Sequence record: PQ850613.1 | Reading direction: 5' to 3' (one strand) | Origin: Escherichia phage KarlSchell_Bas89 | Length of the DNA: 64,000 bases | Shown: one piece after another, positions 11,797 through 29,259 of the stretch | How positions within the stretch are numbered: the stretch's first letter is position 1 | Layout of the letters: each line of letters begins with the position of its first letter | Notes under the pieces: generated by a model | Databases searched by the model: none | Told to the model about the DNA's origin: nothing | The model's input: the letters and a program-made list of their open reading frames with translations, nothing else | Made by a program: the position numbers and the translations under genes

Positions 11797-11805
11797 TAAT
11801 GTATA
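11797..11805 (+). promoter_or_regulatory. TAATGTATA promoter-like element
   Basis: Exact 9-mer 37 nt upstream of the 11842 start codon; same 9-mer and spacing upstream of a minus-strand gene at 29201. Confidence 0.45.
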
Positions 11806-11841
11806 TAGGGGGTAGGACATTTTTATTTATAAGGAGACGTT

Positions 11842-14800
11842 ATGGCTAACATTAAATCTTGGGAAGAAGCATCGAAAAGCCCCAAGTATATGAATGCAAC
11901 TCCTGAGCAACAGGCTCAGTTGAGAGAGCAATACAAAGCGGCAGGTGGTACAATCCCTGAAGATAAGCCAGTACAACCACAACAAGAAGAGCGTGGCTTA
12001 GTTGGTGAGTTCGCTCAGGGCGTATCTAATGCTATCGAATCTGGTGGAGCTAATATTGCAGCTAGTACCGCTCGTGGTTTAGGTGGTCTGGTTGAAATGG
12101 GTGAGAACGTTCTCGGTTCCCAAACAAGCTATGGTAAAAGAATTCAAGATAACGCAAAACAAGTATTAGAAAAGCGTATGGCTGGTATCGAGGATGGCTT
12201 TGGTAAGACTGCTGGGCAGTATGCTGGAGTGGCTGCTGATATCGGTTTGACAGTTGCTAACCCTGCTTTGGCTGCTGGTGTTATTGCGGGACGTGAAGCA
12301 GGGCGTGCTTATGCAGACCAGACTCCAGAAGAGGGAGAAGATAAGTCAGTGTTAGATGCTGCTCTTGTTGGTGGTGCTAACTTTGCAGCTCAGAAGATTC
12401 TTCCGGGTTTCACAGGAACAGCTGAGTCTACTTTAGGTCGTATTGGTCAGAGTGCTGCTTCTAACGCAGTGGCTGGTGCTAAGGGTGGTGCTCTCGTAGG
12501 TGCTGCTGAAGCTCAGAATAAGTATGGTGATGACACTACACTTGCCAATGTACTAGAAGGTGCAATTGATGAAGGTGTTGCTGGTGCTGCTTACGGCGGT
12601 GCTATTGGTGGTGTTCATGGTGCGATCAGTCGTCCTAGTCCTCAAGTATTTGATAAGACTCCTGAGAACGTTAAGACTGATATCTCCGCTGAAGATGAAG
12701 CGATTCGTAATGCTAAAAATGCTGATGAACTCCGTGAAGCTTATTCTCAAGCTGATACTGCTAACACAGCTTCCGCTCTTAACCTGCTAGACCAGAATGA
12801 TTTCCGTATTACAGATGCCGTGGCTATGGATTCTCCTGCTGCTCAACGTATCCTTAATACAGACCAGACTCGTGCTGAGAAAGCTGCTTCCTCTCTTACA
12901 GAGCGTTCTAACATCCCAGGTCTCAATCCTCTTGCTTCTCCAAGTAAGGTTAAGGGTAAAGCTTTTGCAGATAACGAACATAACCAGAAGCAAGCTGTAG
13001 CAATGAAAGATGCAATGGCTGACTACACTAAAGACAACACCAAGGCTCTTAATGATGTTCTTGATAATCTAGACAGAGAGTTGAATGACCTTCGTGTCCG
13101 TGGTGACTTTACTGGTAGCGCTATTGACATTAAGAATCAGACTCGTAATGATCGTGATTTCATTGATGCTTACAAGAACTTCTACACTGAAGCAAACAGA
13201 TTCAAAGCTCGTGATGGTGAAGACTTTAATAACTTTGTAGAGAAAGCTACCGAGCTACAGAAACTTGCTGATAATGTTTCTCCAGAGATGAAGAAAGCTA
13301 TTGGTGGTTTGAAGAAACTGAAAGGTATGCCTGAAGGTTTCAACCCTATCCAAGATGCCTTTACTCTGAATAACACAGCTAAATTAATGAGTAACCAAGA
13401 CCGTGGTTGGACAACCCTGACAGATGATGGTTTCCGTGAAGCCTCTTCTCCAAGTTTTGTTATGAACACCCTTGGTGCTGCTAAGTATGCTCTGAACCGC
13501 TTCTCTTCAGAGAGGGCTAGGTCTCAACGTGCTCGACAGCAGGATTCAAACAGTGAAGCAATTCGCTCTTTGGCTCGTGGTGATTTAGAGGTTGCTCGTG
13601 CTCGAAGTGCAGCAGCAAAAGCACGCGAAGAAATGGAAGCCGAACCGGTTGTTGATGACGTTCAATTTAAGACGCAAGCTGATGACCAAAATCAGGCTGG
13701 TTCTGAACCCTCTTCTCCAGCTACTGTGACGGAAGATTTCTCTCCTTCTCCAGCTCCTTTAACTGCTCGTGATTTGGTTGCTCAAAGACGTGCTATTCGA
13801 CAGGCGGAACAACGCCGTGCAGAGGAGGAAGCACAAGCTGCTCAGAATGCTCCAGTTGAACCAGAAGCTCCAGCAGAAACTTTGCCTACGCGTAACCCTC
13901 TTGAGGAACGTAGAGTGCAAGAAGCTGAGATGGAACAACAGCGTGCAGCAGAAGAGGCTGCTAAAGCTCCTGAGACGTCCGTAGAAGAGCCTACAGCTAA
14001 AGCTGAGCCGTTACCTGCTCGTGCTCCTAAAGCTCCTAAGGAAGCTGCTCCTGAGGTTAAACCGGCTACTGGTGTAGAACGTCTTGCTGCTATGTCAACA
14101 GCTGCTCGTCAGGCTACTAAAAACCGTGCTGAACGTTTTGCTCGTTCTTTGTATACTGCTGGTGCTAAAGCCAAAGCTACTGCGGAAAACTTCTTGGCTT
14201 ATAAAGGAGACCCGAAAGAGCTGATGCGTCGTATCCGTCAGGAAGACCAAGCGAACAATGCTGCTCGTCATGAAGAGATGGCTCGTAACCAACTAGCTTC
14301 TCAGCAAGGTATTGCAGCTGCTAAATCTAACCGAGTTCGTTCTGCATTCTCCGATTGGGTTAAAGAGCGTGGATTACCTTCTGAAATCGCCTCTAAAGCC
14401 CTACGTGCTGAAGAACGTGGATTGGATGGTAACGTATCAAGCCTAGACTCTTTGAAGCGCAGAGCTGAGCGTATGTATCAGAAAGAGCGTGATGATGAGT
14501 TTGATAGGCTGTATCGTGAAGCTCTGGAAGAAAACAAAGCTTTTGATAAGAAAGATGCACCTAAGCTGAAAGATCAGAAGGCTGAGTTCCAGTCAGAGAT
14601 TGATTCTCTACTTGAGAACGAACCTCTCCGTCCTGCTCAGAAAGATGCAATGCGTAAGATGATGAGTGATTTTGTTGATGGGAAGTTTAAAGCGGCTGAG
14701 AAAGCTGGAAGGGAAGAAGCTTTAGAGGTTGGTCAAATGAAGGATTTGTGGGATGGGTTTATTAATACCTACAATCGTGAAGTTGGCATGTTCAATAAAG

Positions 14801-16263
14801 CTAACAAGAACTCTCAGTATGAGGCAGCAGCTAAACATCTACAGGCTCGTGAAGAGCGTCTTACCTCTTTACGTAACAGAGCAGAAGCTCGTGCTCAAGC
14901 GAAAGCTACAGCAGAAGCTGAACGTCAGTCACTCGAAGCTATTGCTGGTCAGAAGACTGAGATAGAGAAGATGTTTGATGAGTTACCTAAACCTGTCCGC
15001 GAGGCTCAGGAAAGCCGTACTCTGAAACAGCTTGCAGCTCACCACGATAAGAACTCCCCTGTTCCTCCAGAACGTTTCCGTAGTATTATCGAACGTATCC
15101 ATAACGCAGAGTCCGACTACCTTGATCGTAAGCGTCGTCTCACTGATGCAGAGGAAGATGCTCGTGAAGCTAAGTGGAACAAGATGTATGAACAAGCAGA
15201 GGAGATGAACCGTAAATTCGATATAGATGCTCGCGTGTCCCGTGATAAGAGCCTCAAAGAAGCTCAGGAGCGACAGAATGATCTCATGGCAGTACAACGC
15301 CAACGTGATGACATTCACAGCCGTCTGGTGCGTTCTATCGAAGATAAGGGCATCCCTAAAGCTGATGCTGAAGCATTTGCTGGTTCTTATATGGATAACC
15401 GTTATGCTCTTCTTGAAAAACCTATGACCCCTACCGAGCATCAGAATGCTCGTGCACGTATTGAGTCCGATGTAGAGAAGTTTGCTAAGAAGTATGAAAG
15501 CTTGTCTCCTATCGAGAAAGACGTGGTTAAGATTACTGGTGATGTGGAAGGTAAACTGGATGGGTTGGATGCTGAGACTATGAAGGCAGTTGAGGAAGCT
15601 AGGAAGGTTGACTCTGATATTAAGAAACTTCAGGATGAAGAGTTGGAAATGGAGAAAGTCCGTTCAGCTTTACCTGATGATGAAAAGTCTCAGGCAAATT
15701 CCGACATTCTGGAAAGCATTAAAAAGCAAGAAGATGAGTTTGCAGGAAAGGTTGAGAAGGCATTCTTGGAAGGCAAGGACTTGAAGGAATTGGCTAGTGT
15801 TGCAGAGGTTCTGGATAGGGTTCATGGTGCTGACAAGGCTGGGAACAACCGTAGATTTGTTCGTGCTCTACAGACTGCTGCTGACAACAAGAATAAGTAT
15901 GGTGATAATCCGGTAGCTTGGTTTAGTGCTGATGATTACTCTGCTATTGCTAAACTTGGTGCTGCATCAGCGGGCGGTAACAAATCGAGAGCGTTGGAGA
16001 AGATCTTTGGTTCTACAGCAGATCAAGCTAAGGCTAAGCTTTTGGGGAGAGATGATGTAGCGAAGATTAGACGTGTGATTGAAGCGAATCCTGAAGTCAA
16101 GATTCCTTCTTACAAGACTACTACTCGTCAAGAGTATTTACAGTTCTTGGAGAAGTATAATGATGAAGGAGTGTTGAAAGTCAAACGTGGTTCTCTGTCT
16201 GACAGATTAGAAAGGAATAAGCGTCAAGCTAAACTCCGTGTTAGAGTTCGCTCGAAAGAGTAA
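11842..16263 (+). CDS. large (1473 aa) coiled-coil-rich virion protein (internal core/ejection-type)
   Basis: Long ORF with RBS AAGGAG; A/E/K/R-rich helical composition; last gene of the plus-strand structural block. Confidence 0.55.
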   Translation: MANIKSWEEASKSPKYMNATPEQQAQLREQYKAAGGTIPEDKPVQPQQEERGLVGEFAQGVSNAIESGGANIAASTARGLGGLVEMGENVLGSQTSYGKRIQDNAKQVLEKRMAGIEDGFGKTAGQYAGVAADIGLTVANPALAAGVIAGREAGRAYADQTPEEGEDKSVLDAALVGGANFAAQKILPGFTGTAESTLGRIGQSAASNAVAGAKGGALVGAAEAQNKYGDDTTLANVLEGAIDEGVAGAAYGGAIGGVHGAISRPSPQVFDKTPENVKTDISAEDEAIRNAKNADELREAYSQADTANTASALNLLDQNDFRITDAVAMDSPAAQRILNTDQTRAEKAASSLTERSNIPGLNPLASPSKVKGKAFADNEHNQKQAVAMKDAMADYTKDNTKALNDVLDNLDRELNDLRVRGDFTGSAIDIKNQTRNDRDFIDAYKNFYTEANRFKARDGEDFNNFVEKATELQKLADNVSPEMKKAIGGLKKLKGMPEGFNPIQDAFTLNNTAKLMSNQDRGWTTLTDDGFREASSPSFVMNTLGAAKYALNRFSSERARSQRARQQDSNSEAIRSLARGDLEVARARSAAAKAREEMEAEPVVDDVQFKTQADDQNQAGSEPSSPATVTEDFSPSPAPLTARDLVAQRRAIRQAEQRRAEEEAQAAQNAPVEPEAPAETLPTRNPLEERRVQEAEMEQQRAAEEAAKAPETSVEEPTAKAEPLPARAPKAPKEAAPEVKPATGVERLAAMSTAARQATKNRAERFARSLYTAGAKAKATAENFLAYKGDPKELMRRIRQEDQANNAARHEEMARNQLASQQGIAAAKSNRVRSAFSDWVKERGLPSEIASKALRAEERGLDGNVSSLDSLKRRAERMYQKERDDEFDRLYREALEENKAFDKKDAPKLKDQKAEFQSEIDSLLENEPLRPAQKDAMRKMMSDFVDGKFKAAEKAGREEALEVGQMKDLWDGFINTYNREVGMFNKANKNSQYEAAAKHLQAREERLTSLRNRAEARAQAKATAEAERQSLEAIAGQKTEIEKMFDELPKPVREAQESRTLKQLAAHHDKNSPVPPERFRSIIERIHNAESDYLDRKRRLTDAEEDAREAKWNKMYEQAEEMNRKFDIDARVSRDKSLKEAQERQNDLMAVQRQRDDIHSRLVRSIEDKGIPKADAEAFAGSYMDNRYALLEKPMTPTEHQNARARIESDVEKFAKKYESLSPIEKDVVKITGDVEGKLDGLDAETMKAVEEARKVDSDIKKLQDEELEMEKVRSALPDDEKSQANSDILESIKKQEDEFAGKVEKAFLEGKDLKELASVAEVLDRVHGADKAGNNRRFVRALQTAADNKNKYGDNPVAWFSADDYSAIAKLGAASAGGNKSRALEKIFGSTADQAKAKLLGRDDVAKIRRVIEANPEVKIPSYKTTTRQEYLQFLEKYNDEGVLKVKRGSLSDRLERNKRQAKLRVRVRSKE

Positions 16264-16271
16264 ACAAGAAA

Positions 16272-16305
16272 AGCCCCAACCGAAAGGAAGGGGCTTTATT
16301 TTTAT
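16272..16305 (+). terminator. rho-independent terminator
   Basis: AGCCCC...GGGGCT hairpin followed by TTTATTTTTAT. Confidence 0.65.
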
Positions 16306-16331
16306 CTAAGTTTTAGAAACCATCAAATTCG

Positions 16332-16835
16332 TCAATCTTTTTTAAACTCTCCATGATATTCCTCTCTTTTACTCTTAAGCCATCTATGTAAATATAAGAT
16401 ATCGTATGAAGATTTCGTGTAAGATTTACCTGATATGTAAATTCGAGCCTGGTAGTATCCCGGATTCTTTCCTCCATGAGAGTTGTCATGAATACCTTTA
16501 GGTAAAGAATCTCTTTTACTGCTCCAACCTCTAGTATTCCTAGCACTTTCCTTCGCATTACAAAGTCTAAGATTTTCTATTGTATTGTTGTCTAGGTTAT
16601 TATCTATGTGGTCTACTAAAAACCCTTCTGGGATAGGTCCATTATGGTACTCCCAAACCAACCGGTGAGCTTTAATTCTTCCAGAGTTTTTGGTGTTGAT
16701 TTCCCAATAACCTTTCTTGTTTTTCGTACCTACCACGCTTCCTATTTTTACAAAAGGGGCTGGTTTACTCTTCCAGAGAAATCCAGAAGGGGATTCAGAG
16801 GAGTATAGAAAATGGGTCCACTTTTCTTCACTCAT
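16332..16835 (-). CDS. HNH homing endonuclease
   Basis: AHRLVWEYHNGPIPEGFLVDHIDNNLDNNTIENLRLCNAKESARN. Confidence 0.8.
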   Translation of the reverse strand: MSEEKWTHFLYSSESPSGFLWKSKPAPFVKIGSVVGTKNKKGYWEINTKNSGRIKAHRLVWEYHNGPIPEGFLVDHIDNNLDNNTIENLRLCNAKESARNTRGWSSKRDSLPKGIHDNSHGGKNPGYYQARIYISGKSYTKSSYDILYLHRWLKSKREEYHGEFKKD

Positions 16836-16843
16836 ACACTCTC

Positions 16844-17212
16844 CTAGATTAAGTCGTAATACTGGATAATACCTTTCAGAGCAAAGTCACGAATCTGGTC
16901 TTTCTCTGTATCATAGGCTGTCATAATCCAGCAAGGATTCCCGTCATTGTGATAAACGGAAACACCAACTGAAGTTCGGATAGGAATAACGGCGCGGTCT
17001 GCAACCTCACCTCTCCAATTACGATAGCGAAAGCGAAGAATTTGTTTCGTAGAGACTGGAGCATCAGTTGTTTCCTTTTTTAAATTGTTTTCTAGCATTA
17101 TTTTCTTCTTGAGTTTTAGTCTTGTGACAAGGTTCTTTACAAAGCACTTGGAATCCATGCTTCTCAACAAGTGCCCTCTGAATAATTTCATCCCAAGTAG
17201 CTTCATGGTCAA
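16844..17212 (-). CDS. hypothetical protein
   Basis: ORF; true start probably an internal Met near 17098; overlaps next ORF. Confidence 0.3.
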   Translation of the reverse strand: MTMKLLGMKLFRGHLLRSMDSKCFVKNLVTRLKLKKKIMLENNLKKETTDAPVSTKQILRFRYRNWRGEVADRAVIPIRTSVGVSVYHNDGNPCWIMTAYDTEKDQIRDFALKGIIQYYDLI

Positions 17213-17465
17213 TAGGAACCAGAGGCTCTATATGGTCAATAGCCATTTCTTTAACAGGGTGATCATTGCCACACATAGCACATTGATAGTGCATTGCCAG
17301 CTTCCCTGTCTTGGGGTTTATCTTTCGTTCTGTTTGAGCATCTTTAAGAGCATCGAACATAGGCTTCCACTTCCTAGTCAGAGAGCGAATCCCTGACTTG
17401 ATGAAGGAGTTATATCGAGCTTCTGTCCAAGTGCCGCTACAGCGAGTCTTCTCAACCTTCGCCAT
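17064..17465 (-). CDS. His-Me finger (HNH-type) nuclease
   Basis: CAMCGNDHPVKEMAIDHIEP ... CKEPCHKTKT. Confidence 0.5.
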   Translation of the reverse strand: MAKVEKTRCSGTWTEARYNSFIKSGIRSLTRKWKPMFDALKDAQTERKINPKTGKLAMHYQCAMCGNDHPVKEMAIDHIEPLVPIDHEATWDEIIQRALVEKHGFQVLCKEPCHKTKTQEENNARKQFKKGNN

Positions 17466-17676
17466 AACCTACATCCATATCATCCTCCTGCCAAACTCTT
17501 TTATTAACACGGTGACTAACCTTGTCAGCTTTAGGGATACGACCAGTGCGTTGATCAAACAGTTGGTGTTTAATCTTCTGATCTTTACGAGTTTCACGGT
17601 TAGGTGCAGTTTCATCATAAGTACGGTAGTTGAATTTATTACCCATTATCAATATCCTTATTCCAAATTTTATCAA
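17452..17676 (-). CDS. hypothetical small protein
   Basis: ORF between two annotated genes; no motif. Confidence 0.25.
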   Translation of the reverse strand: MIKFGIRILIMGNKFNYRTYDETAPNRETRKDQKIKHQLFDQRTGRIPKADKVSHRVNKRVWQEDDMDVGYGEG

Positions 17677-18502
17677 GCCATGACCACTCGAAGAGGTCTT
17701 CTGGTGTTTGACCTACGAATAGGAGACGAGCATTCTCAAGCATCTTTTCTTCCCATTCTGTATCAAACTTCTTATAATATTCCATTCGCACTATATGATA
17801 AAGAGTCCACTTATCACTTACACCTTGTAAAAGGTTAATAGCAGCTTTCTTTCCAATCCCTTGACGACGGAGTTGTAACTTACCTCCCCACATGACTTCT
17901 TCACGCTCGCCACAACCGGGAATGTTGTCTGTGCCATCACCAATAAGCATTTGATAAAAGAAGTTTTGCCAAGCAACCTCATCTGATACGTAGTGAGGAG
18001 GAACCTCTTTCTGCCTTTCTCCACATGCCCACCGATAATGCCATCCGGGGGTTATCAATAAATCTTTGTCTCGTGTGCAGATGATAGTGTTCTTGTCAGT
18101 TCGCTGCCTTTCTGCTAATGCATCGTCAGCCTCTCTTCCATAAACACCTACATACTCGTAGTTATTTTTAATGTAATCACCAACGTTCTGCCAGTGGAAA
18201 GGTCTTTCTCCCGGAGGTCGGTTGGCTTTGTACCCTTGCTGCTTTGCTACATCAAAACGGAAGTTACCGCCTTCGCTGAAGTAGAAGATTGTCTTTCGGC
18301 AACCAGCGCGAGCAATGATTGTATCAATTTTATTTTGAAGTCGTTCAATTAGAAATCCATAATCTACTGGTGTACGTCCTGTATCTAGGAAAGGATGCTC
18401 CTGAGTCAGAGCACCCACTTCGTATCGGAGAACATCAGCATCAACCAAAGCTACTTCAGGATACTTAACATCTTCCATAAACATCATCCCGAGTTTGAGC
18501 AA
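17639..18502 (-). CDS. 5'-3' exonuclease / flap endonuclease (T7 gp6-like)
   Basis: ALVDADVLRY, GREADDALA, TRDKDLL, IGDGTDNIPG acidic-cluster motifs. Confidence 0.75.
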   Translation of the reverse strand: MLKLGMMFMEDVKYPEVALVDADVLRYEVGALTQEHPFLDTGRTPVDYGFLIERLQNKIDTIIARAGCRKTIFYFSEGGNFRFDVAKQQGYKANRPPGERPFHWQNVGDYIKNNYEYVGVYGREADDALAERQRTDKNTIICTRDKDLLITPGWHYRWACGERQKEVPPHYVSDEVAWQNFFYQMLIGDGTDNIPGCGEREEVMWGGKLQLRRQGIGKKAAINLLQGVSDKWTLYHIVRMEYYKKFDTEWEEKMLENARLLFVGQTPEDLFEWSWLDKIWNKDIDNG

Positions 18503-19079
18503 TAATCCAATCCAAATAATATCGAGCTTCCGAAATAGTCCGATTATTATATAATGTGCAAGTTTCTAACTGATTTCCTTCAATATAATTCCTAGAATCT
18601 CCAGAAAAATCACATCCCTCTCTTTTGACTTGAACTACTACTACATTGAAAGACTTCTCTAACTCTCTTACCTCTGCTTCAAACCCACCGTCCGTAAACA
18701 GGATAACATCATTATGATTCCTCCCTTCTGCATTGATGCTGTTTACTGCTTGGATTCCCATATAGTTCTCACCAAACATAGGTTTTAAGTAATCTTCACT
18801 TGTGGAAATCATTAAATCCCTAACAGATCTCCCTCCCCATTCAGGTCTAGCCTTTTCTTTCCAGTCTCGGTCTTTATACAACTCCAGAAAATCCTCCAAC
18901 TGCAAACCTAATGCTGCGGAGGCTACTTTGTACATAGGCTCTTTAAATGATTTAGCATAACGGGAATAAGACGCAATGTGGGATTTTAGTAACCACTCCT
19001 CAGCTATCGTGTCTTTACCACAACCCGGAGGCCCATTGAGAATTACTACTAAAGGTTTAGACTTATCAGTCATTTCCAA
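18465..19079 (-). CDS. P-loop nucleotide kinase (probable dNMP kinase)
   Basis: Walker A ILNGPPGCGKDT near N-terminus, about 200 aa. Confidence 0.5.
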   Translation of the reverse strand: MEMTDKSKPLVVILNGPPGCGKDTIAEEWLLKSHIASYSRYAKSFKEPMYKVASAALGLQLEDFLELYKDRDWKEKARPEWGGRSVRDLMISTSEDYLKPMFGENYMGIQAVNSINAEGRNHNDVILFTDGGFEAEVRELEKSFNVVVVQVKREGCDFSGDSRNYIEGNQLETCTLYNNRTISEARYYLDWIIAQTRDDVYGRC

Positions 19080-19462: not shown

Positions 19463-19463
19463 A

Positions 19464-20105
19464 TTAAGACCCTTGGAATTCTTCCTTGTCGAAGTGCTTC
19501 TCTACCACATACTCATACAGATCTTTATACTCTGCATAACGACGATAGAATGTCCCATGTGAGATGCCTAATTCTTTCTGAATGGAATCGTGAGGGATAC
19601 CTAAGAAGAGCATTGAGAACATGCTTGCAAGCTTCTGTGTATCCATTGTATCACTCAAATCTTGGAAGAAGTAGAAGATACGAGACTCCATGAAAGGGTC
19701 CCCAACTGAGTCATGCTTATTAACTGCATATTCCAGAGGGCCTTCTGAGTAAATGTCAGGGTTGTTAAACATATCTGCTTCTGGAATAGCATAGATACGT
19801 CGATCACCAACTGTCTGTCGATTGGAACGGATAGACCAGATGATATTCTTCACACGATAAGTCATGTGCTCAATCTCTACTTCACCTTCTAGTAGAAGTT
19901 CTTCTTGCTTGGAGTAGATGAAACGCCAAACATTAAGCAACACCTCTTGAGCTACATCCTCTGCTTCATGATAGTCACGAATGTCGTACATAAAGAATTT
20001 GTGAACCACTTTCCAGTTCACCTTATAGAACTCATCGAAGGTTGGGAAGTATTTGATTGGAATACCGTGAATACGATACCGAGTAGGTGTTGTTTTCTTA
20101 GCCAC
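19464..20105 (-). CDS. phage-encoded sigma factor (ECF-like)
   Basis: Region-2-like [17 protein letters not shown] and region-4-like [28 protein letters not shown]. Confidence 0.7.
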
Positions 20106-20135
20106 AAGTTATCCTTAACTTTGTCGGTTTTAATT

Positions 20136-20342
20136 TTATACACTGATCAAGTAAATAGCTGTTTCAGGGTTTGGTGTGTTTTGTTGTGGTGTGCCGGAGA
20201 TACGAATCCACTCATCATTTTCTGGTTCGTAATACAACCAAGCATCTGTGAATTTGAAAGTTCTTCCAAACACTTTATTATCATGTTCCCAAATTACGTG
20301 AACATTCCTAGTATCAGGTAGAACTGATTGCGCTCTAATCAT
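20136..20342 (-). CDS. hypothetical protein
   Basis: ORF only. Confidence 0.3.
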   Translation of the reverse strand: MIRAQSVLPDTRNVHVIWEHDNKVFGRTFKFTDAWLYYEPENDEWIRISGTPQQNTPNPETAIYLISV

Positions 20343-20870: not shown

Positions 20871-20892
20871 AAACTGTTACAAGGAGAGATAC

Positions 20893-21633
20893 TTAGAATG
20901 GAGATTCGTCTTCTTCAAAAGTAGACTCAGGCTCACGATCAATAGTAGGGATAGAAGCAACCGGCTCTTTCTGCTCGTTCTCAGAAGCCTTAGTGACTTC
21001 ACGACCAGCGAGAGGAATGTTCTTAGCGTCATTAGCTTGGGTAAGCAGGTTACGCTGGAATGGGAAGATTACCTGATAAGCAGCTACGTTATCATCTGTT
21101 TCAGCATACGGTTCGAAGAAGACCAGAGGACTGCGAGCAGCAGCAACAGCTTCACGATACTTGGTAGGAATCGGAGTAATCTGTTTGATAGAGTTCTTAA
21201 CTTCACCAGCTTTGTTGGTGTAAGAGTTGATTAGAACGTTTACAGGCTGACCTAACAGCATTTCTTTAAACCAAGCCAAATCACCTTTCAGTGCTTGGAT
21301 GCTAGGGTCAACCATCTTAATTAGGTTGAGAATACCAGAGTTCTTAGCTCGTGGGTTTACATCGAAGCTCTTAAACTGACATGCAGGGCGCGGGTCAAGA
21401 GCATTGCCTTCAGAGTCCTTACCGGTTGCATCAACACCAATCAGCTCAAACGCCAAGTCCATACGGAAAGCTGGGTTCTTAGGAGTAACTGCTTTAGTCT
21501 TAGGGTCAACCCAAGGGTCACGATTGTGAACACCAAGACCAACAACACGAACGATACGAGCTTCGTACTCACCATCAGGGATTACGTCGTAGTTGGATTT
21601 ACGGGAAACGGACATAGTTGGGATAGAAGACAT
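20893..21633 (-). CDS. single-stranded DNA-binding protein (T7 gp2.5-like)
   Basis: Acidic C-terminal tail ending EEDESPF; position in replication module. Confidence 0.55.
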   Translation of the reverse strand: MSSIPTMSVSRKSNYDVIPDGEYEARIVRVVGLGVHNRDPWVDPKTKAVTPKNPAFRMDLAFELIGVDATGKDSEGNALDPRPACQFKSFDVNPRAKNSGILNLIKMVDPSIQALKGDLAWFKEMLLGQPVNVLINSYTNKAGEVKNSIKQITPIPTKYREAVAAARSPLVFFEPYAETDDNVAAYQVIFPFQRNLLTQANDAKNIPLAGREVTKASENEQKEPVASIPTIDREPESTFEEDESPF

Positions 21634-21680
21634 ATTTTAATTTCCTTATTTAATTTAAGATTGTTGCTCACTTTGAGCGG

Positions 21681-21699
21681 TTATGTATAGTATACATTA
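21681..21699. promoter_or_regulatory. near-palindromic TTATGTATA-g-TATACATTA element (back-to-back promoter-like 9-mers)
   Basis: Minus-strand TAATGTATA about 58 nt upstream of SSB start; one-mismatch copy on plus strand. Confidence 0.4.
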
Positions 21700-21762
21700 C
21701 ACCTATACCGATAAGGGTGCTATATAGTATAAGCAGTAGTGGTAGTAGATATTGACTACTAG

Positions 21763-21771
21763 TAATGTATA
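21763..21771 (+). promoter_or_regulatory. TAATGTATA promoter-like element facing an ORF-less region
   Basis: Exact 9-mer; downstream 280 nt has hairpins but no plus-strand ORF. Confidence 0.35.
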
Positions 21772-22048
21772 TATTGTATAGATGATAATTCTATTGCAGG
21801 CTTGTATATTGGGCAATTCTCAGAATCCCTTGCAAGTACCGAAGGGCAGGAGACACCTGCGAGATAAAAATAGAGAATTAAGGAATCCTTGATTTAGGTT
21901 GTAGGGACTCCTAGGGACTTTGATTCTCTATTTAAAAGAAATATTAATTACTTACTACCTAAATAGTTAACTAACTTACTTAAAACCTTTTCAATAAGAA
22001 TTGCTAAAAGGATAATTCCTAAGAAAGCTAATAAGAGAAAGGCATAAG

Positions 22049-22300
22049 TTACCATTCCATCATTCCTTTTAATCTAGATTCTTCTACTATTCGCTGATAG
22101 AGTAAGTTAGACTCAGCTTGATCTTTTAACATTTTACTGTATTGATCTCTGAGACTATCTTTATAAACAACAGGTGGTTTAAATAGTGATGATACTTTGT
22201 TCTTTTCTTCTTTCATCAAAAGTCTTCCTAATCTCTTGCAGAGATACAGCTTTAAAGTTGATTTGTTCCATCGAGGTACAGAAGTATCTCCAATCATCAA
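22049..22300 (-). CDS. hypothetical protein
   Basis: ORF, overlaps 3' end of next gene in another frame. Confidence 0.25.
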   Translation of the reverse strand: MMIGDTSVPRWNKSTLKLYLCKRLGRLLMKEEKNKVSSLFKPPVVYKDSLRDQYSKMLKDQAESNLLYQRIVEESRLKGMMEW

Positions 22301-22685
22301 TCACATGATTGTGAGTATGAGCATAGATGTTGAACTTCCCTCTCATTTCATCAGCGTGAATGGGAATGTGAGTCACCCAAAACTCTTTGTACTTGAAGTC
22401 ACCTGATACAGTTCTGAACACTTTCATAATCTGTGGTAACAAATCCAGTCTGTCATGATTCCCTAAGACAAGATGCTTCTCGCCTTTAATCTCATAGATG
22501 ATATCCAGTGCATATGGTTCAAACACCCAATCACCAGTGAAGAAAGTCTTATCTCGTTTAGTCACATGGTCAAACGCTGAAAGAACTGCTTTATCGTGCT
22601 CTTCAATACTACCAAACTGTTTACGAAACTTGCAGATATTACGATGACCTAAGTGACCATCTCCTGCGAAATATACTTCAGCCAT
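22179..22685 (-). CDS. metallophosphoesterase (calcineurin-like)
   Basis: GDGHLGH, GDWV, LGNHD, AHTHNH motifs. Confidence 0.7.
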   Translation of the reverse strand: MAEVYFAGDGHLGHRNICKFRKQFGSIEEHDKAVLSAFDHVTKRDKTFFTGDWVFEPYALDIIYEIKGEKHLVLGNHDRLDLLPQIMKVFRTVSGDFKYKEFWVTHIPIHADEMRGKFNIYAHTHNHVIDDWRYFCTSMEQINFKAVSLQEIRKTFDERRKEQSIITI

Positions 22686-22694
22686 AAAGACCTC

Positions 22695-23177
22695 TTAGAT
22701 AGTTAATTTGTGATCTTCCTCCGCTCTGTTTCTGACAGAGACGGCTTCCTCTAGGGTTGAGAAAGTTCCTAGGTATTTAGTTTTACCTTTAATGTGTATG
22801 TTGGCTATGTACTTCCCTCTTGAATTGAGGTACACACCCTTAGCCCCTGAGGTGTTGTTAGAATTCAAACCCTTATTCCAAGAGTTATTCTCGTTGTTAA
22901 CCTCTCTAAGGTTGCCTATGGAATCATTGGAAGGATTTCGATCAATGTGGTCTATTTGATCTTTAGGTAAAACGCCATTAGCAAAATACCAAATGATATG
23001 GTATCTGTAAATAGCTCTTCCTTTCAATCGAATAAACACTCTTCCATCCTTTTTTGAAGTTCCTGCCTCATCACCTCGCCTGCATTTTGTTCCGTTGTGA
23101 ATTCTCCAGAACACTTTCCCAGATGATAAATCACAAACAAAGAACTCATCCAGAAGATCTTCTATCATATCATGCAA
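22695..23177 (-). CDS. HNH homing endonuclease with AP2-like DNA-binding domain
   Basis: IDHIDRNPSNDSIGNLREVNNENN plus YLGTFSTLEEAVSVRNRA. Confidence 0.75.
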   Translation of the reverse strand: MHDMIEDLLDEFFVCDLSSGKVFWRIHNGTKCRRGDEAGTSKKDGRVFIRLKGRAIYRYHIIWYFANGVLPKDQIDHIDRNPSNDSIGNLREVNNENNSWNKGLNSNNTSGAKGVYLNSRGKYIANIHIKGKTKYLGTFSTLEEAVSVRNRAEEDHKLTI

Positions 23178-23386
23178 CCATCACACACGAAATCCCCACT
23201 CAGGGATTCTTGTAATAAACGACTTTGTTCATCAGAGACTAACTGATTAACAACTTTCTGTAACTCTAACAGTTGATCAAAATCTATATATTGTCCTTCC
23301 TCAAGAACGTTAGTTTCAATCCCCCATAAAGGTGACGGCATGTTTCCACTTGCATTAAAAATCATCGTATGTTTCCTTATGTCCAA
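23165..23386 (-). CDS. hypothetical protein
   Basis: ORF only. Confidence 0.3.
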   Translation of the reverse strand: MDIRKHTMIFNASGNMPSPLWGIETNVLEEGQYIDFDQLLELQKVVNQLVSDEQSRLLQESLSGDFVCDGCMI

Positions 23387-23516
23387 GATTTAGCTTTTAC
23401 TTCAACGTAGGTTTTAACTTCACCTTTCAGAACCTCTTGAGAAGCGATAGCGCTTTCTTCAGAGTGGTGTACAACGGTAATTACTTTCTTTCCAATCTTA
23501 TAAGTATGAACCCAAA

Positions 23517-23723
23517 TCATTTAACTTCCTCAATATCAACTAATTCGAAACTCCCTATTTCTTCAAGCTGGATAATCTTTTCAACCTTCTCAACAGCTTT
23601 AATAGGGTTCTCTTCTTCTACAACCTTACACCCCGACACCACGAGACTGCCTGTCCCACGAAGGTATAGATTTAACTTATAGATCACTTTGTAATATTTC
23701 ACCTTGATAAGACCCTTCCCCAA
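23517..23723 (-). CDS. hypothetical protein
   Basis: ORF only. Confidence 0.3.
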   Translation of the reverse strand: MGKGLIKVKYYKVIYKLNLYLRGTGSLVVSGCKVVEEENPIKAVEKVEKIIQLEEIGSFELVDIEEVK

Positions 23724-23874
23724 TCTTTGATGTAACAGCGACCATCAATCCACTTGGTCTCTGATTTAAATTCTTGAGAGATTCTTGTTTCACAGTCTTC
23801 TTTACTGTAGTCACCAAGCATCTCCATAACACAAATAAACAGAGCTATACCAATGGCCCACAAGATTAACTTCT

Positions 23875-24267
23875 TCATCGAATCACCAAAGGCTCATCAG
23901 AGTACACAGGAGCGGCTATTTCTACAGGAGGTGCTGCTTTAAGGTCATTAAGTCTTACACCCTTTAGCATCCCATCTAGGTGGTCCATTTTAGGGATTCC
24001 AACAGGGAAGTCATCAATCCAGATATCTACAAAGAAACCTAGTTGACGACATACATCATCCTTCTGTACACCATTACAAAAGATAACAGGAATCTGTAAG
24101 GTCTCTGCATCATAGAGAATGTCTACGTTGTCATACCCGTTAGGCTCTGAGAATCGGAAAGTTACAAATCGAACATCGTGCCCATTTGCTTTCATTAAAC
24201 CAATCACGTCTCTCCACAAGCGTCTATCCGCTGTGTATGTATCATCATAATCTAAACCAATGTTCAT
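23875..24267 (-). CDS. HAD-like phosphatase (putative)
   Basis: N-terminal IGLDYDDTY resembles HAD motif I. Confidence 0.4.
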   Translation of the reverse strand: MNIGLDYDDTYTADRRLWRDVIGLMKANGHDVRFVTFRFSEPNGYDNVDILYDAETLQIPVIFCNGVQKDDVCRQLGFFVDIWIDDFPVGIPKMDHLDGMLKGVRLNDLKAAPPVEIAAPVYSDEPLVIR

Positions 24268-24284
24268 ATCTAATCCTTAGACAA

Positions 24285-24312
24285 GAAAAGCCGCCCGAAG
24301 GCAGCTCTTTAT
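24285..24312 (-). terminator. putative terminator hairpin (A/T runs on both sides)
   Basis: GCCGCC-CGAA-GGCAGC imperfect hairpin flanked by AAAA and TTTATTTTAT. Confidence 0.45.
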
Positions 24313-24313
24313 T

Positions 24314-24511
24314 TTATGCTTCTTGTTCTTCTGGCTCTTCAGCGTTCAACTGTTCCAGTCGATCATTCTCAATACTAAGATCAATAACTACACCAGTAAG
24401 TTCTACTACAGCCTGACGCAGTGCGTCTTTACCCATCGAGTTAACTTGGGTCAGGAAGAATGCTTTACCTTCTTCGGTGGATAGGGTTTCTTTAAGTTCA
24501 ATAGGGGTCAT
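24314..24511 (-). CDS. hypothetical protein
   Basis: ORF only. Confidence 0.3.
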   Translation of the reverse strand: MTPIELKETLSTEEGKAFFLTQVNSMGKDALRQAVVELTGVVIDLSIENDRLEQLNAEEPEEQEA

Positions 24512-24858
24512 TTATTATCTCTCATAAATTCGGGTTACTGTACCACCCGCAGCTTCTACTTGAGCTACGAATGAATCACGCTCTTCATCTGTATAAACCA
24601 GCTCATTCAGGAAGATCCCTTCAGAGTCTTGGTACAAGATGTTCCACTTAGGCAGGGGCTTACGAATCAAGTCCATCACTCTTTATCCTCCCGTTCTTTC
24701 CACAGTTGGGCTAGTTCTAAATAATACTCAGCTTCGTCAGTGCGTCCTTGTTCTTTACAGATGCTATGCTGACGGAAGCACCAATCTGAAGGTTGCTCTT
24801 CCACTTCCTTGTCTCCTTGAGAAGTAATCAATAAGACTACTTCATTTGTTTTTCCAAT

Positions 24859-25050
24859 TCACTCTGCCATTTGAGGAATCTCTAGATGCTTTATAGAGAA
24901 GTTTTTATTTGGGAAAGTCTTTATTAGCCAAGCTGCTTCTTGGATAGCTTTGTTTTCTTTCTCGTAAATACAAAGCCGAGCATCCAAGGAAACAATTCTC
25001 CCGGTTTCGCTGACGATTACCCATGTTTTATAGGTATAAGTAGGGGTCAT
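24859..25050 (-). CDS. hypothetical protein
   Basis: ORF only. Confidence 0.3.
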   Translation of the reverse strand: MTPTYTYKTWVIVSETGRIVSLDARLCIYEKENKAIQEAAWLIKTFPNKNFSIKHLEIPQMAE

Positions 25051-25066
25051 TGATAATCCTTTTGAA

Positions 25067-25552
25067 TCAATGTGTGTGATTCCAATTTAATCCAATCTGA
25101 CAGTCAGATGCCAGAGGGCATTCCATCTTGAGATACTCACCAGCTTTCTTAACACAAAGCTCTGTAAGCTCTTTTAGCTTTTGTGCATCATTACGGTGAA
25201 CAGAGAACTGCCCTTCATCGTGCATGTCAATAACCTTCGCACAACGAACACCATCACGCTCAATCCACTTGTTAAGGAAAAGCATGGCATACTTCATAAC
25301 AATCGCACCAGCACTCTGTAAGAGAGTATTCAGTGCTTTATGAACCATTACCTTGCCTGTTGCATCACGTCTCATTGTAATACGACGACCATCAACACCC
25401 AAGATATAACCTTGAGCTGCTTTCTCTGTCATACGCTCAATAAGAATTGCAATACAAGGATTCTCTGCCAAGAAACGTGCTCTCATTACTGCACCTTCTT
25501 CAGAGCCTCCACCAACGATAGAACCGAGCTTAGCATCACCTGCCCCATCAAT
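25067..25552 (-). CDS. DNA polymerase (family A, T7 gp5-like), 3' segment (after the inserted HNH element)
   Basis: Frame open upstream of the listed Met gives IDGAGDAKLGSIVGG...; contains ALNTLLQSAGA and motif C HDE; protein ends in H like T7 gp5 (from memory). Confidence 0.7.
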   Translation of the reverse strand: MDGAGDAKLGSIVGGGSEEGAVMRARFLAENPCIAILIERMTEKAAQGYILGVDGRRITMRRDATGKVMVHKALNTLLQSAGAIVMKYAMLFLNKWIERDGVRCAKVIDMHDEGQFSVHRNDAQKLKELTELCVKKAGEYLKMECPLASDCQIGLNWNHTH

Positions 25553-26332
25553 AGTTCAAGCAAAGGCGCTACTCTTTGCTCCGTTCTCTTATGAACTGCT
25601 TACAGTTTCCTGTAAGATCGGACTATATCTTCATCTCCACCTTTACGTGCTGAGAGACAGGCGCTTCCGTAACACTTGTTACGTACTCCCTTCCGGGATA
25701 GTCTCTGAACTTTCCGTGACACAAACTTTTCTACATAGATCAATGAACTGAGCATCAGATAGTTTACCTTTTGCATTATTCACTTCCCAAGTTACCCATT
25801 GGACATTTCCAATTTCGTAACCTTTCGAATTATCCTTCCTATCTAAAGAAAGTTTATTCGGGTGTCCGCTGACGAAAGATAGTGAATCCCCTGTCAAGGC
25901 ACATTTGTAGTTTTGCTGAGAAAGAAGCTCGAATAAATAGTCTTGAGTAATCGTGAACTCAAAACCCCTTTCTCTAGCTCTGTGATGGGAGTTGTGATAT
26001 CTCTCACGAACCGCTCCACCCCAAGTTTGTCGATATTGTCCCATAGCAGCAGATGCTGCACTTCTGTTTCGACGTCTCCACTCATTTGAAGCAATGCGAG
26101 CACAATTTTTACATTGACATTGCTTTCCATCTTTACTCTTAGATGAATTATGGAAACTGTCGAGTGGCTTTTCTTCGCCACAGCTTGAACATATCTTTGT
26201 CATAAACACCTCCTTGTGTTGATGTTTATGTCACGGCTTAGCTGCTGATTGGCATATCTTTCGACTTAGCTTTCCAGCAATTCACCTGTTTTGCTTCTGC
26301 ACATTTCTATGCAGTGAACCAATTATTTAGTT
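25553..26332 (-). mobile_element. candidate group I intron carrying an HNH endonuclease ORF, inserted in polymerase motif B
   Basis: Upstream piece stops right after TFIYAF, downstream frame resumes at IDGAGD; about 780 nt between, containing an ORF with its own RBS; boundaries approximate. Confidence 0.45.
25679..26209 (-). CDS. HNH homing endonuclease (insertion-encoded)
   Basis: SLDRKDNSKGYEIGNVQWVTWEVN; own RBS AAGGAGG. Confidence 0.8.
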   Translation of the reverse strand: MFMTKICSSCGEEKPLDSFHNSSKSKDGKQCQCKNCARIASNEWRRRNRSAASAAMGQYRQTWGGAVRERYHNSHHRARERGFEFTITQDYLFELLSQQNYKCALTGDSLSFVSGHPNKLSLDRKDNSKGYEIGNVQWVTWEVNNAKGKLSDAQFIDLCRKVCVTESSETIPEGST

Positions 26333-27694
26333 AAAGGCATATATAAATGTCTTCGCATTGTCACGAGTAGGAAGACCAGCAAGTCTCTGGTTGTGGGAGT
26401 GGATATCACCTTCTAATAAAATGTCACGATACATAACAGCAGAAGCTAAACCACGTTCAGCCAATGCTTTCTTACCAGCGTTACCTTCTGCAATGGCTTC
26501 AGCAAGCATGTCTCTACACTCTTTAATGAGGTAGTGAGCAAGCATACGAAGCTCTAATCCAGAACCGTCATAACCTAAGAAGAGTTCTCTACCAGCTGGT
26601 ACATAATATTTATACAGACCTACCGGTTTGTCTTTCTTTCCGGGTTTTCCACGTTCGTAGATAACGTTTGTATTTTTTCGTAAGTAACACCCATCAGGGA
26701 TATTGTTGGTAATGATGAAAGGATAGTTATGACTATCATCTGTGGAGTAGTTAGATTGAAATAAACTCCTACACTCGTGACCAAACAAACCGCGAGAAGG
26801 AATATTAACAACAATGCGATGTTTAAAACGAAATGTCGGAGTAGCGCAGCTATTAGCTTCCGCTGAGAGTTTACCATCTGGACGTTCCTTATCAATCAGT
26901 CCATTAATCAAGCCTAGTCTGTGAGCCGCTACAACACGTCTCTTAAGCAGACTTCCCACTTTACCTAGATCACCCTCAAGACCTTCTTCAAGAGTCTCTT
27001 CGAGGTTTGTAGGAGCTGTGGGCCACTTGTTTGAAGTAGCTAATGCTCTCTTAATTTCATCAAAGGTTACAGGTTTCTTCCTGTTAGGGTTCAAACCTAA
27101 ACCAAAGACATAAGCCTTCATGTAGTTGACAGTTTTGTGACGGAAGTGCTTATCCAAGAACTTCTTGATATCAGCATCAACCATCTGAGCTGTCTGTCGC
27201 TCTTTCTCATTGCCACGCATCCAAGAGTTGTACCATTCTTGATACGTTCCACACTTACGCATGGCTCGCTTAATCTCAAATGTGTTCCAAGGCTTCTTAG
27301 ATGTATTAAATTCTGGAGGAAGAAAACCTTCATCCATCAGTGCTTCTTTAACTCGTGCATCCTTTGATGGGTCAAAGTCAACATACTCAACACAAGTAAA
27401 AGCTCCACCAATATCTTCTCTCTTTAACCCTACTCTGTCGCAATATAATTGAGGCCACTTCTGAAGAGCACCAGTCTTCTTAAAGGGTTTCATGTAAGTA
27501 GAGCCATCAACCCTCATCTTAGGTAACAGAGGAATTAATTCTCTGTCGATGTTAACGATAATCTCTCTGAGAAGGTGAACATACCACCGTGCATTCCTCC
27601 GATTAAAGTTGACACCACTCTTCGCTTGCTTTGAAATTATATCAGCGACAGTCATCTCCGTTAAGAACGGAAGTACATCAGGGTTCTCCATCAC
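26333..27694 (-). CDS. DNA polymerase (family A, T7 gp5-like), 5' segment of polymerase domain
   Basis: GYDGSGLELRMLAHYL (motif A) and LPTRDNAKTFIYAF (start of motif B) closely match T7 gp5 as recalled. Confidence 0.8.
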
Positions 27695-27706
27695 CCTCTC
27701 CTTTTA

Positions 27707-28084
27707 TTATCGGTATAGTAAATCTGTAAATGCTTGATTATCTGCTATTACATCCAAAGCCTCATCCGTGCTAGGAGTTTCAGCTTCTTCTACTTGGTAC
27801 ACAACCTCACGCACACGGAAAGCTCTTGCAGGAACCCTAAAGCCAGCATGTCTCTCCATAACATCTTTCTGAACCTGTGCAAGTTTCATACCCCACACTT
27901 CTTCATAAAGCTCTGGATGTTTATTACTAATAACTACATATTGGCGATGTACGGATTTCGACTCTCTGACCTTAGCTAGTAACTCATTAAACAGGTCTAA
28001 CTCTTCTTCAGAGAGTGCATCCACAATATCTTCCCACTTCTCTACACAGAAGCGGTGGGCATGTCTGATAGGTAATGGCATCAT
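27707..28084 (-). CDS. hypothetical protein
   Basis: ORF directly upstream of polymerase gene. Confidence 0.4.
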   Translation of the reverse strand: MMPLPIRHAHRFCVEKWEDIVDALSEEELDLFNELLAKVRESKSVHRQYVVISNKHPELYEEVWGMKLAQVQKDVMERHAGFRVPARAFRVREVVYQVEEAETPSTDEALDVIADNQAFTDLLYR

Positions 28085-28339
28085 TTACCCCTTAGGGAAA
28101 GGAAGAAGATTTTCTACTGCAACACGATAAACTTTTTCTACGTTTTTGTTTTTATAGGAGATAAACTTGCCATCAGCACCACGAAGAATTACATTAGTGC
28201 GAGCAGTCTTCGGGTTCTGGGAAATCTGACCAGCAATGATAGACGCATTAATCGCATTATCAGCGAAGTTAGCAAACTTCCACTTAACCAGTTTATTGGA
28301 AATTGAATCGATGATAGTTACAGTTTTTACGATAGACAT
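28085..28339 (-). CDS. hypothetical protein
   Basis: ORF only. Confidence 0.35.
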   Translation of the reverse strand: MSIVKTVTIIDSISNKLVKWKFANFADNAINASIIAGQISQNPKTARTNVILRGADGKFISYKNKNVEKVYRVAVENLLPFPKG

Positions 28340-28363
28340 ATTTTATTACCTAAAGGGTTTGTA

Positions 28364-28393
28364 TAAAAGAAAAGGCCACCCAAGCGGGTAGCC
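28364..28393 (-). terminator. putative rho-independent terminator (minus strand)
   Basis: GGCCACCC-AAGC-GGGTAGCC hairpin with A-rich run on plus side. Confidence 0.5.
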
Positions 28394-28398
28394 TCTGA

Positions 28399-28893
28399 TT
28401 AACTAGAGCTTAAAGCGTGTCTGATAGCTGTATGGCTTACACCAAACATCCTACCTAAAGCTCTTGTTCCAAACTGAGCAGAACCTTTGACATAAAGGTT
28501 TTTAACTCTTTTAACATCCTCTGTATTAAGTTTCATTCTAGGGTTTATGTTCCTGTGATGGCCTACATTAAGACCTGTATCAAAAGAATGTTGAACATTC
28601 TCAGAAGCATCTGCCCACTCTAGATTCTCAATACGATTATCACTTTTTACACCATTCTTATGATTTATCTGAGGTTTGTTTTCAGGGTTAGGTATGAAAA
28701 AGGTTGCTATCAACCTATGAGCTTTCCATGACCTCCCTTCAAAATAAACCCTAATATAACCTTTAGTGTCTAAGTGGCCAGCCTCTTTACCCGGATGGCT
28801 CTTATTCCACTTAAAACCTTTTGAAGATGACTCTGTGTAAAACAGACGACCAGAATCTCTATCATAAGAGAGGTAGTCGGATATAGGAATCAC
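28399..28893 (-). CDS. HNH homing endonuclease
   Basis: AHRLIATFFIPNPENKPQINHKNGVKSDNRIENLEWADASEN. Confidence 0.8.
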   Translation of the reverse strand: MIPISDYLSYDRDSGRLFYTESSSKGFKWNKSHPGKEAGHLDTKGYIRVYFEGRSWKAHRLIATFFIPNPENKPQINHKNGVKSDNRIENLEWADASENVQHSFDTGLNVGHHRNINPRMKLNTEDVKRVKNLYVKGSAQFGTRALGRMFGVSHTAIRHALSSS

Positions 28894-29201
28894 TGACTCA
28901 GCGCCCCCTTCCTTCCACCATTTGATTTTCCAGCTCGATCTCCACTTTTGCCGCCAGCTGAACGATTGCTGCTGACTGTCTCAACACGTAAATTGCTTGA
29001 CGCATTAGAGCCTCCTGATTTAATGGCTCGTTTGTGTCCGACATCTTTACCTTTGAGTGCAGATTTTCCAACGCGTTTCTCAACGATGCGACGTGCACGG
29101 TGGCGCTGAGCATCTCCGCTCTTACTTCCAACTCCCGTTTCACCTCTTGCGATGGCTGTACGTCTTTCTTGTGCATAATCTCTTTTAGCCTTATCAGTCA
29201 T
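28890..29201 (-). CDS. basic K/R/G/S-rich small protein (possible nucleic-acid-binding)
   Basis: Good RBS AAGGAG 8 nt upstream; TAATGTATA 37 nt upstream; a second ORF (28898-29176) is open in another frame. Confidence 0.4.
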   Translation of the reverse strand: MTDKAKRDYAQERRTAIARGETGVGSKSGDAQRHRARRIVEKRVGKSALKGKDVGHKRAIKSGGSNASSNLRVETVSSNRSAGGKSGDRAGKSNGGRKGALSQ

Positions 29202-29237
29202 TTACAACTCCTTAATATATCAGTGTACACTAAGGAG

Positions 29238-29246
29238 TATACATTA
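29238..29246 (-). promoter_or_regulatory. TAATGTATA promoter-like element (minus strand)
   Basis: Exact 9-mer on minus strand 37 nt upstream of 29201 start. Confidence 0.45.
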
Positions 29247-29259
29247 TGAGAGGGTAGCT

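Follow-up and report, generated by a model that had tools for sequence, protein, structure and literature searches.

Within the genome of Escherichia phage KarlSchell_Bas89 (sequence record PQ850613.1), of which a stretch of 64,000 nucleotides (nt) was analysed and is referred to here as the window, the nine-nucleotide sequence TAATGTATA recurs upstream of genes on both strands, which raises the question of what this element does and whether all of its copies do the same thing. A first, sequence-only reading of the window had taken it for a promoter element and had likened it to a motif of the sigma-dependent promoters of phage phiEco32. Both ideas proved sound: the published phiEco32 consensus, tAATGTAtA, matches the element (PMC4331800, PMC8948821, PMC4281155), its copies are syntenic with the gp36-dependent promoters of phiEco32, and homologues of both gp36 and gp79 are encoded in the window. 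The copies of TAATGTATA are thus very probably (at about 0.93) the -10-like elements of middle and late promoters of the gp36 type, a reading built on their sequence, synteny and conservation and on the fact that the window encodes the cognate sigma factor and activator. This main finding is already known, since the consensus has been published and the same sites have been tabulated for the 96%-identical phage KBNP1711. One copy, on the plus strand at 21763, belongs to no published list and is considered separately below.

The window comes from a phiEco32-like podophage of the subfamily Gordonclarkvirinae, with 97% identity to EP335, 96% to KBNP1711 and about 80% to members of the genus Kuravirus (12 kb tested). 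Its gene order matches that of phiEco32 one to one; phiEco32 is a Kuravirus and the window phage belongs to another, Nieuwekanaalvirus-like genus.

The gp36 promoter system and its components in the window

In phiEco32, TAATGTATA is the experimentally determined consensus of the phage-specific promoters upstream of genes 6, 13, 26, 40, 58 and 68 (PMC4331800). These six phi32_gp36 promoters (P6, P13, P26, P40, P58 and P68) share the single consensus tAATGTAtA, transcription starts 6-8 base pairs downstream of the element, and equivalent sequences are present at the expected places in every phage of the phiEco32 subgroup (PMC8948821). Table S3 of the same paper gives gp36-type sites, six per phage, for NJ01, ECBP2, KBNP1711, SU10 and 172-1, and includes both P6 of phiEco32 and P4 of KBNP1711; the predicted KBNP1711 promoters P4, P11, P24, P35, P56 and P70 carry the same element upstream of the same genes as in the window (PMC8948821). 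On the phiEco32 genome the elements lie at 9101 (+, P13), 26014 (+, P26), 36632 (-, P40), 42937 (-, P58), 46862 (-, AAATGTATA, P68) and 1677-1685 (+, TAATGTAGA, P6), and the equivalent of P13 falls outside the window.

How the element is read can be seen in a cryo-electron microscopy structure (Xu et al. 2025, PMC12276001) in which E. coli RNA polymerase is bound to gp36, gp79 and promoter P68. In it, -14A and -13A are read by gp36 residues N95 and S91, the A facing -12T by S94, and -11G by E79 and H80, while W90 and Y83 stack at the fork and R187 and Y186 contact -37G and -34A. According to the same paper, gp79 shuts off sigma70 and stimulates P26 and P68 three- to four-fold.

Both proteins have homologues in the window. 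The phage sigma factor is encoded at 19464-20105 (-), is 83% identical to phi32_36 and matches chain F of PDB entry 9M7Y at E = 4.5e-121; every DNA-contact and clamp-contact residue of gp36 is kept, those matching E79, H80, Y83, R84, W90, S91, S94, N95, Y186 and R187 being conserved without exception. The gp79 homologue, whose role as a sigma70 transcription inhibitor and gp36 transcription activator follows PMC12276001, is encoded at 39623-39865 (-) and is 73% identical to phi32_79.

In the mechanism proposed for the window, the host E. coli RNA polymerase core with the phage sigma (19464-20105 (-)) would use the elements at -15 to -7, where the AATGTA core is centred at -11.5, the N-terminal domain of the sigma reading A-14, A-13, T-12 and G-11, with the DNA opened from -11, and its C-terminal domain touching the -35 region at -37G and -34A. 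The gp79 homologue (39623-39865 (-)) would displace region 4 of sigma70 and stabilise the phage sigma, and the joint effect of the two proteins would be to redirect transcription away from host and early genes towards the middle and late ones. The predicted start of each transcript lies 7 nt past the element, and the sites co-oriented with genes would be the equivalents of P26 (11797), P40 (21699), P58 (29246), P68 (32897) and P6 (63406).

A side observation concerns the presumed sigma gene of SU7 (L019), a phage of another genus, in which TAATGTAAA is present at 33589-33597 (-), 18 nt upstream of a 651-nt gene (32920-33570). By position and size this gene is taken to be the sigma gene of SU7, and the site hints at autoregulation in that genus.

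Number, placement and spacing of the copies

Exact copies of TAATGTATA are found at 11797-11805 (+), 21691-21699 (-), 21763-21771 (+) and 29238-29246 (-), all four being where the sequence-only reading had placed them. Four copies compare with 0.56 expected in the 64-kb window, a number reached in none of 100 dinucleotide shuffles. Occurrence at a similar frequency inside coding regions, named at the outset as an observation that would speak against a promoter role, was not what was found: all four exact copies lie in DNA annotated as intergenic in EP335 and phiEco32, for which the chance is about 1.6e-4 given an intergenic share of about 11% of the window. A crude gene map of the window had set the copy at 21763 within a spurious 37-codon open reading frame (ORF), which is annotated in no relative.

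The search for the 9-mer and its variants that had been suggested gave, over the window, a divided result, with exact copies enriched and one-mismatch variants, taken as a class, at chance level in the window (22 observed, 19.2 expected). Among the latter only one is both conserved and syntenic, and this is the copy that had been noticed about 40 nt before 32849, namely AAATGTATA at 32889-32897 (-), 39 nt before that start codon. The one-mismatch copies at 21681 and 21772 were rejected as promoters because they are not conserved as motifs, and that at 35883 (-) because a gene start overlaps it and the -35 bases are missing.

The gaps between element and downstream start codon are 36, 57, 36 and 39 nt, with a further gap of 12 nt at the P6-like site (63406-63414). 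A fixed spacing had been claimed, and it does hold for two sites, where 36 nt intervene (an offset of 37) before the ATGs at 11842 and 29201, but not as a general rule; the relevant spacing is that from the element to the transcription start and not to the start codon, for which the gap ranges over 12-57 nt. Placement upstream of genes likewise applies to the copies at 11797, 21691 and 29238 but not to the plus-strand copy at 21763, which precedes no gene. As to the list of sites, the four exact copies and the one before 32849 were rightly included, whereas the P6-like TAATGTAAG at 63406-63414 was missed, and the label "SSB" given to the gene at 20893-21633 receives no support from Pfam or PHROGs.

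Sites equivalent to published promoters

Conservation was assessed by comparing footprints at the promoter sites in five genomes from three genera, and at the locus shared by the P40-like and plus-strand copies in 15 relatives. EP335 and SU7 show the same arrangement of sites as the window, SU7 without a P58-type copy in its first 50 kb. The equivalent of the late promoter P26 has its -10-like element (-15 to -7) at 11797-11805 (+), an exact copy syntenic with the phiEco32 element at 26014-26022 upstream of phi32_26, and a predicted +1 at 11812. The gene downstream (11842-16263, +; 1473 amino acids; phrog_14629) is a homologue of phi32_26 by synteny and equal length, and in the five genomes both the motif and the whole spacer are conserved. 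The motif here sits at the apex of a terminator-like hairpin with a T-run (11784-11828, +), whose stem (11784-11818) has 15 pairs, six of them G-C, is followed by ATTTTTATTT and begins 8 nt past the stop codon of the gene ending at 11776. It has the properties of an intrinsic terminator and is the strongest terminator-like site within 10.5-30.4 kb, and the substitutions that it carries in SU7 and ECBP2 keep the pairing (G.T to A-T, C-G to T.G). Since the predicted +1 falls in the descending arm of the hairpin, terminator and promoter overlap, and transcripts from upstream can terminate at the hairpin while those starting from the P26-like promoter would lack its 5' arm.

For the middle promoters, the P40 equivalent is the exact copy at 21691-21699 (-), syntenic with phiEco32 36632-36640, with a predicted +1 at 21684; it stands 57 nt before the start (21633) of the gene at 20893-21633 (-), and all nine of its columns are invariant in the 15 relatives. 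The P58 equivalent, at 29238-29246 (-), is also exact and is syntenic with phiEco32 42937-42945, with a predicted +1 at 29231 and the gene at 28890-29201 (-) downstream. Conservation at this site starts abruptly at the motif, the DNA upstream being unrelated between genomes. The P68 equivalent (32889-32919, -) combines AAATGTATA at 32889-32897 with a -35 box, GGTAGTAGATAT, at 32908-32919, has a predicted +1 at 32882, lies upstream of the gene at 32520-32849 (-) and is syntenic with phiEco32 46862-46870; its -10 element and upstream box TTGGTAGTAGATAT are both invariant in the five genomes. It has G at -37 and A at -34, as the structure paper states for P68 itself, and this validates the -15 to -7 register used here.

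The equivalent of the late promoter P6 is found at 63406-63414 (+), where the element reads TAATGTAAG in the window as against TAATGTAGA in phiEco32, with the AATGTA core intact. It is preceded by a terminator-like hairpin and stands 12 nt before the ATG (63427) of the gene-6 homologue. Within 63406-63429 the start predicted for this site (63421) is only 6 nt before the ATG and downstream of a Shine-Dalgarno-like AAGGAG, so the transcript would be nearly leaderless; the same geometry is present in phiEco32.

Two further features of the genome may be recorded here. The coordinate offset between the window and EP335 at successive promoter sites from 11.8 to 36 kb is 4001, 3516, 2307, 2937 and 2417, and these shifts of hundreds of bases imply several gene-sized insertions or deletions relative to EP335 despite 97% identity in the shared DNA. 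There is also a single tRNA gene at 53290-53363 (-; Rfam RF00005, 58.7 bits), in the position of the annotated tRNA-Arg of phiEco32.

Weighing the promoter reading

Several observations weigh against the reading of the copies as gp36-type promoters or limit its reach. The bases at -37 and -34 are G and A at the P58-like and P68-like sites and at the plus-strand copy at 21763, but A and A at the P26-like and P40-like sites, which lack the G contacted in the structure; P26 of phiEco32, which has the same upstream sequence (alignment A2), is active in vitro, and -37G therefore appears not to be obligatory. The first 50 kb of the SU7 genome contain no P58-type copy, and the promoter set is accordingly not shared by all. 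That these sites initiate transcription in this phage and in EP335 is presumed by homology with the phiEco32 experiments. Finally, the gp36 element shares its 5' part with a -10 hexamer of the sigma70 type at the P26-like site (TATAAT, 11795-11800) and at the P58-like site (CATAAT, 29243-29248 (-)), so dual recognition by the sigma70 and gp36 holoenzymes is conceivable at these two sites.

A rival view takes the sites for ordinary promoters of the host sigma70 with an AT-rich -10 (TATAAT, CATAAT), the 9-mer being a conserved extended -10 context. The P26 sequence cTATAATgtata and the P58 sequence tCATAATgtata lend themselves to it, a consensus scan calls GTGGCA-16-CATAAT at 29270-29243 (-) and TAGATA-18-TATATT at 21746-21775 (+), and the SU10 paper raises the possibility that both holoenzymes transcribe some of the middle genes (PMC4281155). 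Sigma70-like matches are however not enriched in the window (41 observed, 37 expected), the invariant core is AATGTA and not TATAAT, the P40-like and P68-like sites have no sigma70 -10 hexamer at all, and the phiEco32 promoters need gp36 and are activated by gp79, the very protein that shuts off sigma70 (PMC12276001, PMC8948821), all of which makes this explanation very improbable. Even less probable is that the 9-mer serves as an operator for a dimeric DNA-binding regulator instead of a promoter element. Partial dyad symmetry does surround several copies, for example TTATGTATAgTATACATTA at 21681-21699 and CTATA-ATGTA-TATAG at 11793-11807, but Suseptimavirus relatives do not keep the palindromic partner at 21681 as a motif, whereas the minus-strand copy is invariant, the dyad at the P26-like site is explained by the terminator hairpin and its T-run, and the cryo-electron microscopy structure shows the element being read by the sigma itself, partly in single-stranded form (PMC12276001).

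The plus-strand copy at 21763

Unlike the co-oriented sites, the exact copy of TAATGTATA at 21763-21771 (+; predicted +1 at 21778) points away from the gene at 20893-21633 and into a stretch without a conserved ORF. At 21741-21752 (+), corresponding to -37 to -26, it is accompanied by a putative -35 box, GGTAGTAGATAT, the same 12-mer as in the P68-like box and at the same offset. Lying 72 nt from the P40 copy, it has counterparts in phiEco32 (36704), EP335 and SU7, and it is absent from the published lists of six promoters (PMC4331800; Table S3 of PMC8948821), the KBNP1711 entries of which differ from the window in that no plus-strand copy between the gp40 and gp41 homologues is listed. Among the 15 relatives, 9 of 11 columns are invariant from -37 to -27, none of 10 in the spacer from -26 to -17, and 11 of 12 from -16 to -5. 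A conserved box, a variable spacer and a conserved -10 together are the footprint of a putative bipartite promoter.

Further variation at this site was observed among its relatives. ES17-like phages (ES17, L015, at 382-525, and L008; columns 150-275 of alignment A1) carry some 150 bp of inserted DNA between the P40 element and the plus-strand promoter candidate, with an annotated coding sequence of 144 nt; the insertion parts the 21763-type promoter from P40, which implies that the promoter travels with the block downstream of it and not with P40. In a metagenomic relative (L046, a contig of ERZ1034915), TAATATATA replaces TAATGTATA at the plus-strand site (at about 8950), a change that alters the -11G contacted by gp36 E79 and H80 and that could be a natural knock-down variant or a sequencing error. 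A scan of viral contigs for the bipartite pattern returned known phiEco32-type contigs and others, and three of the others with the same spacing were found on inspection to be chance matches in coding DNA, the remainder having other spacings.

The non-coding block downstream

Exactly 7 nt downstream of the element, at the predicted +1, a hairpin begins (21778-21794, +) that shows compensatory changes among the relatives, its pairs being U-A or G-C in one case, G-C or G.U in another and C-G, A-U or U-A in a third. Of the cells in this alignment 96.7% are paired, as against 23-48% with slid partners, and the covariation score was reached in none of 500 shuffles; the G.U pairs fit a plus-strand RNA only. 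At this site alone, the position of the hairpin gives indirect support to a start 6-8 nt past the element. The remaining 45 pairs predicted for 21778-21937 never vary and give no covariation signal either way.

The 3' domain (21838-21937, +) is non-coding and nearly invariant (93 of 100 columns in the 15 relatives) and consists of a GCAGG/CCTGC hairpin followed by a long hairpin (21868-21933) with smaller stems inside. When the window is compared with SU7, which belongs to another genus and has a mean identity of 78% over the 27.9 kb compared, positions 21831-21930 are 100% identical and rank first of 2637 windows of 100 nt, the median being 79%. The block at 21831-21937 is the most constrained sequence in the compared part (about 28 kb) of the genomes. 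The region from 21778 to 21937 thus carries its own putative bipartite promoter footprint, lacks a conserved ORF and is more strongly conserved than the coding background.

The middle segment (21800-21836; alignments A1 and A5), which separates the 5' hairpin from the invariant domain, exists in two unrelated versions, one (A) in the window, phiEco32 and SU7 and the other (B), which is longer and contains a TCTCTCA/TGAGAGA hairpin, in MN05, ES17 and ECBP2. This distribution cuts across genera, implying recombination at the conserved junctions. In the most distant relative (L010, with a gp40 that is 67% identical), a 143-amino-acid ORF ending 146 nt upstream of gp40 replaces the non-coding block of about 300 nt. 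Just past the conserved block in the window is a gene for a hydrophobic peptide of 35 amino acids (21948-22055 (-); MVTYAFLLLAFLGIILLAILIEKVLSKLVNYLGSK; phrog_24970), a homologue of phi32_41 that is absent from Paul, EK010, LAMP and ECBP2 and whose shape resembles that of small membrane toxins or holin-like peptides.

Searches for known counterparts of the block were largely negative. Rfam 15 gave no match at the gathering score, and within 21778-21937 none at E up to 10; none of 10 related GenBank records annotates the block; 5,426 E. coli genomes, searched as a check for host mimicry, gave no match at E up to 1; and none of 185,579 bacterial and archaeal genomes contains the 28-nt core. A scan of metagenomes found six near-identical copies. 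No Kuravirus transcriptome was found in the literature searched. A hidden small ORF was rejected, the sole plus-strand candidate starting at an ATG (21782) that relatives lack, as was a trans-acting antisense target within the window, for which the best matches were 11-mers, below the shuffled background.

The most likely reading of these observations, at close to even odds, is that the plus-strand copy is a seventh gp36 promoter, divergent from P40, whose product would be a non-coding RNA some 160 nt long (from 21778 to about 21937). If so, it would have been overlooked because no gene follows it. The candidate RNA would open with the covarying hairpin, continue with a middle module that can be swapped and close with a 3' domain of 100 nt that does not vary across three genera. 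Put forward tentatively, and at rather less than even odds, is the further idea that an active seventh promoter yields a new class of phage RNA, or else a primer transcript or origin transcript, linked to the middle phase of infection.

Its chief competitor, which we regard as quite possible though on balance doubtful, concerns this copy only and holds that there is no working promoter for a functional RNA here and that the conserved block acts at the level of DNA or on the minus strand, either as the terminator of the upstream minus-strand operon together with a protein-binding site or as a replication origin, the plus-strand motif being a remnant or working solely by way of convergent transcription to block read-through. 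After the hairpin at 21868-21933, TTTTTAT follows on the minus strand and no more than TTT on the plus strand, and for this reason the long hairpin probably also terminates the upstream minus-strand operon. The structure outside the 5' hairpin is invariant and so lends no covariation support to an RNA, the fold z-scores of the block are modest (-1.9 on the plus and -1.6 on the minus strand), and two direct repeats spaced by 10 nt (TAGGGACT) with an AT-rich stretch downstream resemble the architecture of an origin. A terminator, however, needs no 100 invariant nucleotides, and the GC skew shows no switch at 21.8 kb, within the minus-strand gene block. The succession of conserved box, variable spacer and conserved -10 is moreover hard to explain without promoter function, and the hairpin starts exactly at the predicted +1 and includes G.U pairs, which only an RNA from the plus strand would allow.

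Comparison with known systems

A more distant system is that of phage 7-11, which also has a phage-encoded sigma (SaPh711_gp47) directing late transcription from similar genome positions, but whose bipartite consensus, GTAAtg-(16)-aCTA, does not match the motif of the window, whose sigma is only 15% identical and which has no gp79 homologue (PMC8948821). With phiEco32 itself the window shares the 9-mer, the syntenic positions, the sigma, the activator gp79 and the P68 -35 box; the difference is that the promoters of phiEco32 were determined experimentally, whereas those of the window are predicted from its sequence.

Two classical systems bear on the candidate transcript from 21778. The OOP RNA of phage lambda is a short antisense RNA against the main operon, next to the replication region. 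Like the candidate, it is a small transcript with its own promoter, opposite to the flanking operon, and ends at a hairpin common to the opposing transcript; the candidate differs in being predicted only, in that its promoter would be specific to the phage sigma, and in that no overlapping coding target was identified. At the primary replication origin of T7, two phage-specific promoters in tandem, phi1.1A and phi1.1B, precede an AT-rich region. There, as the candidate would here, a promoter specific to the phage polymerase fires into non-coding AT-rich DNA among replication genes, but the window has no GC-skew switch and the tandem second copy at 21772 is not conserved.

Conclusions

In conclusion, the motif itself adds nothing new, and its value is one of annotation: with it the transcription units of the middle and late phases can be placed on this genome, and the switch formed by sigma and activator is intact in the window. 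An experiment would be worthwhile only for the orphan plus-strand promoter candidate and the ultra-conserved block. Phages of the phiEco32 type are applied and investigated as therapy for pathogenic E. coli. If the sequence that they conserve most strongly is indeed an unannotated RNA or cis element transcribed from a phage-specific promoter, it is probably essential, and the block could help to prime replication, regulate the opposing operon or counter host defences.

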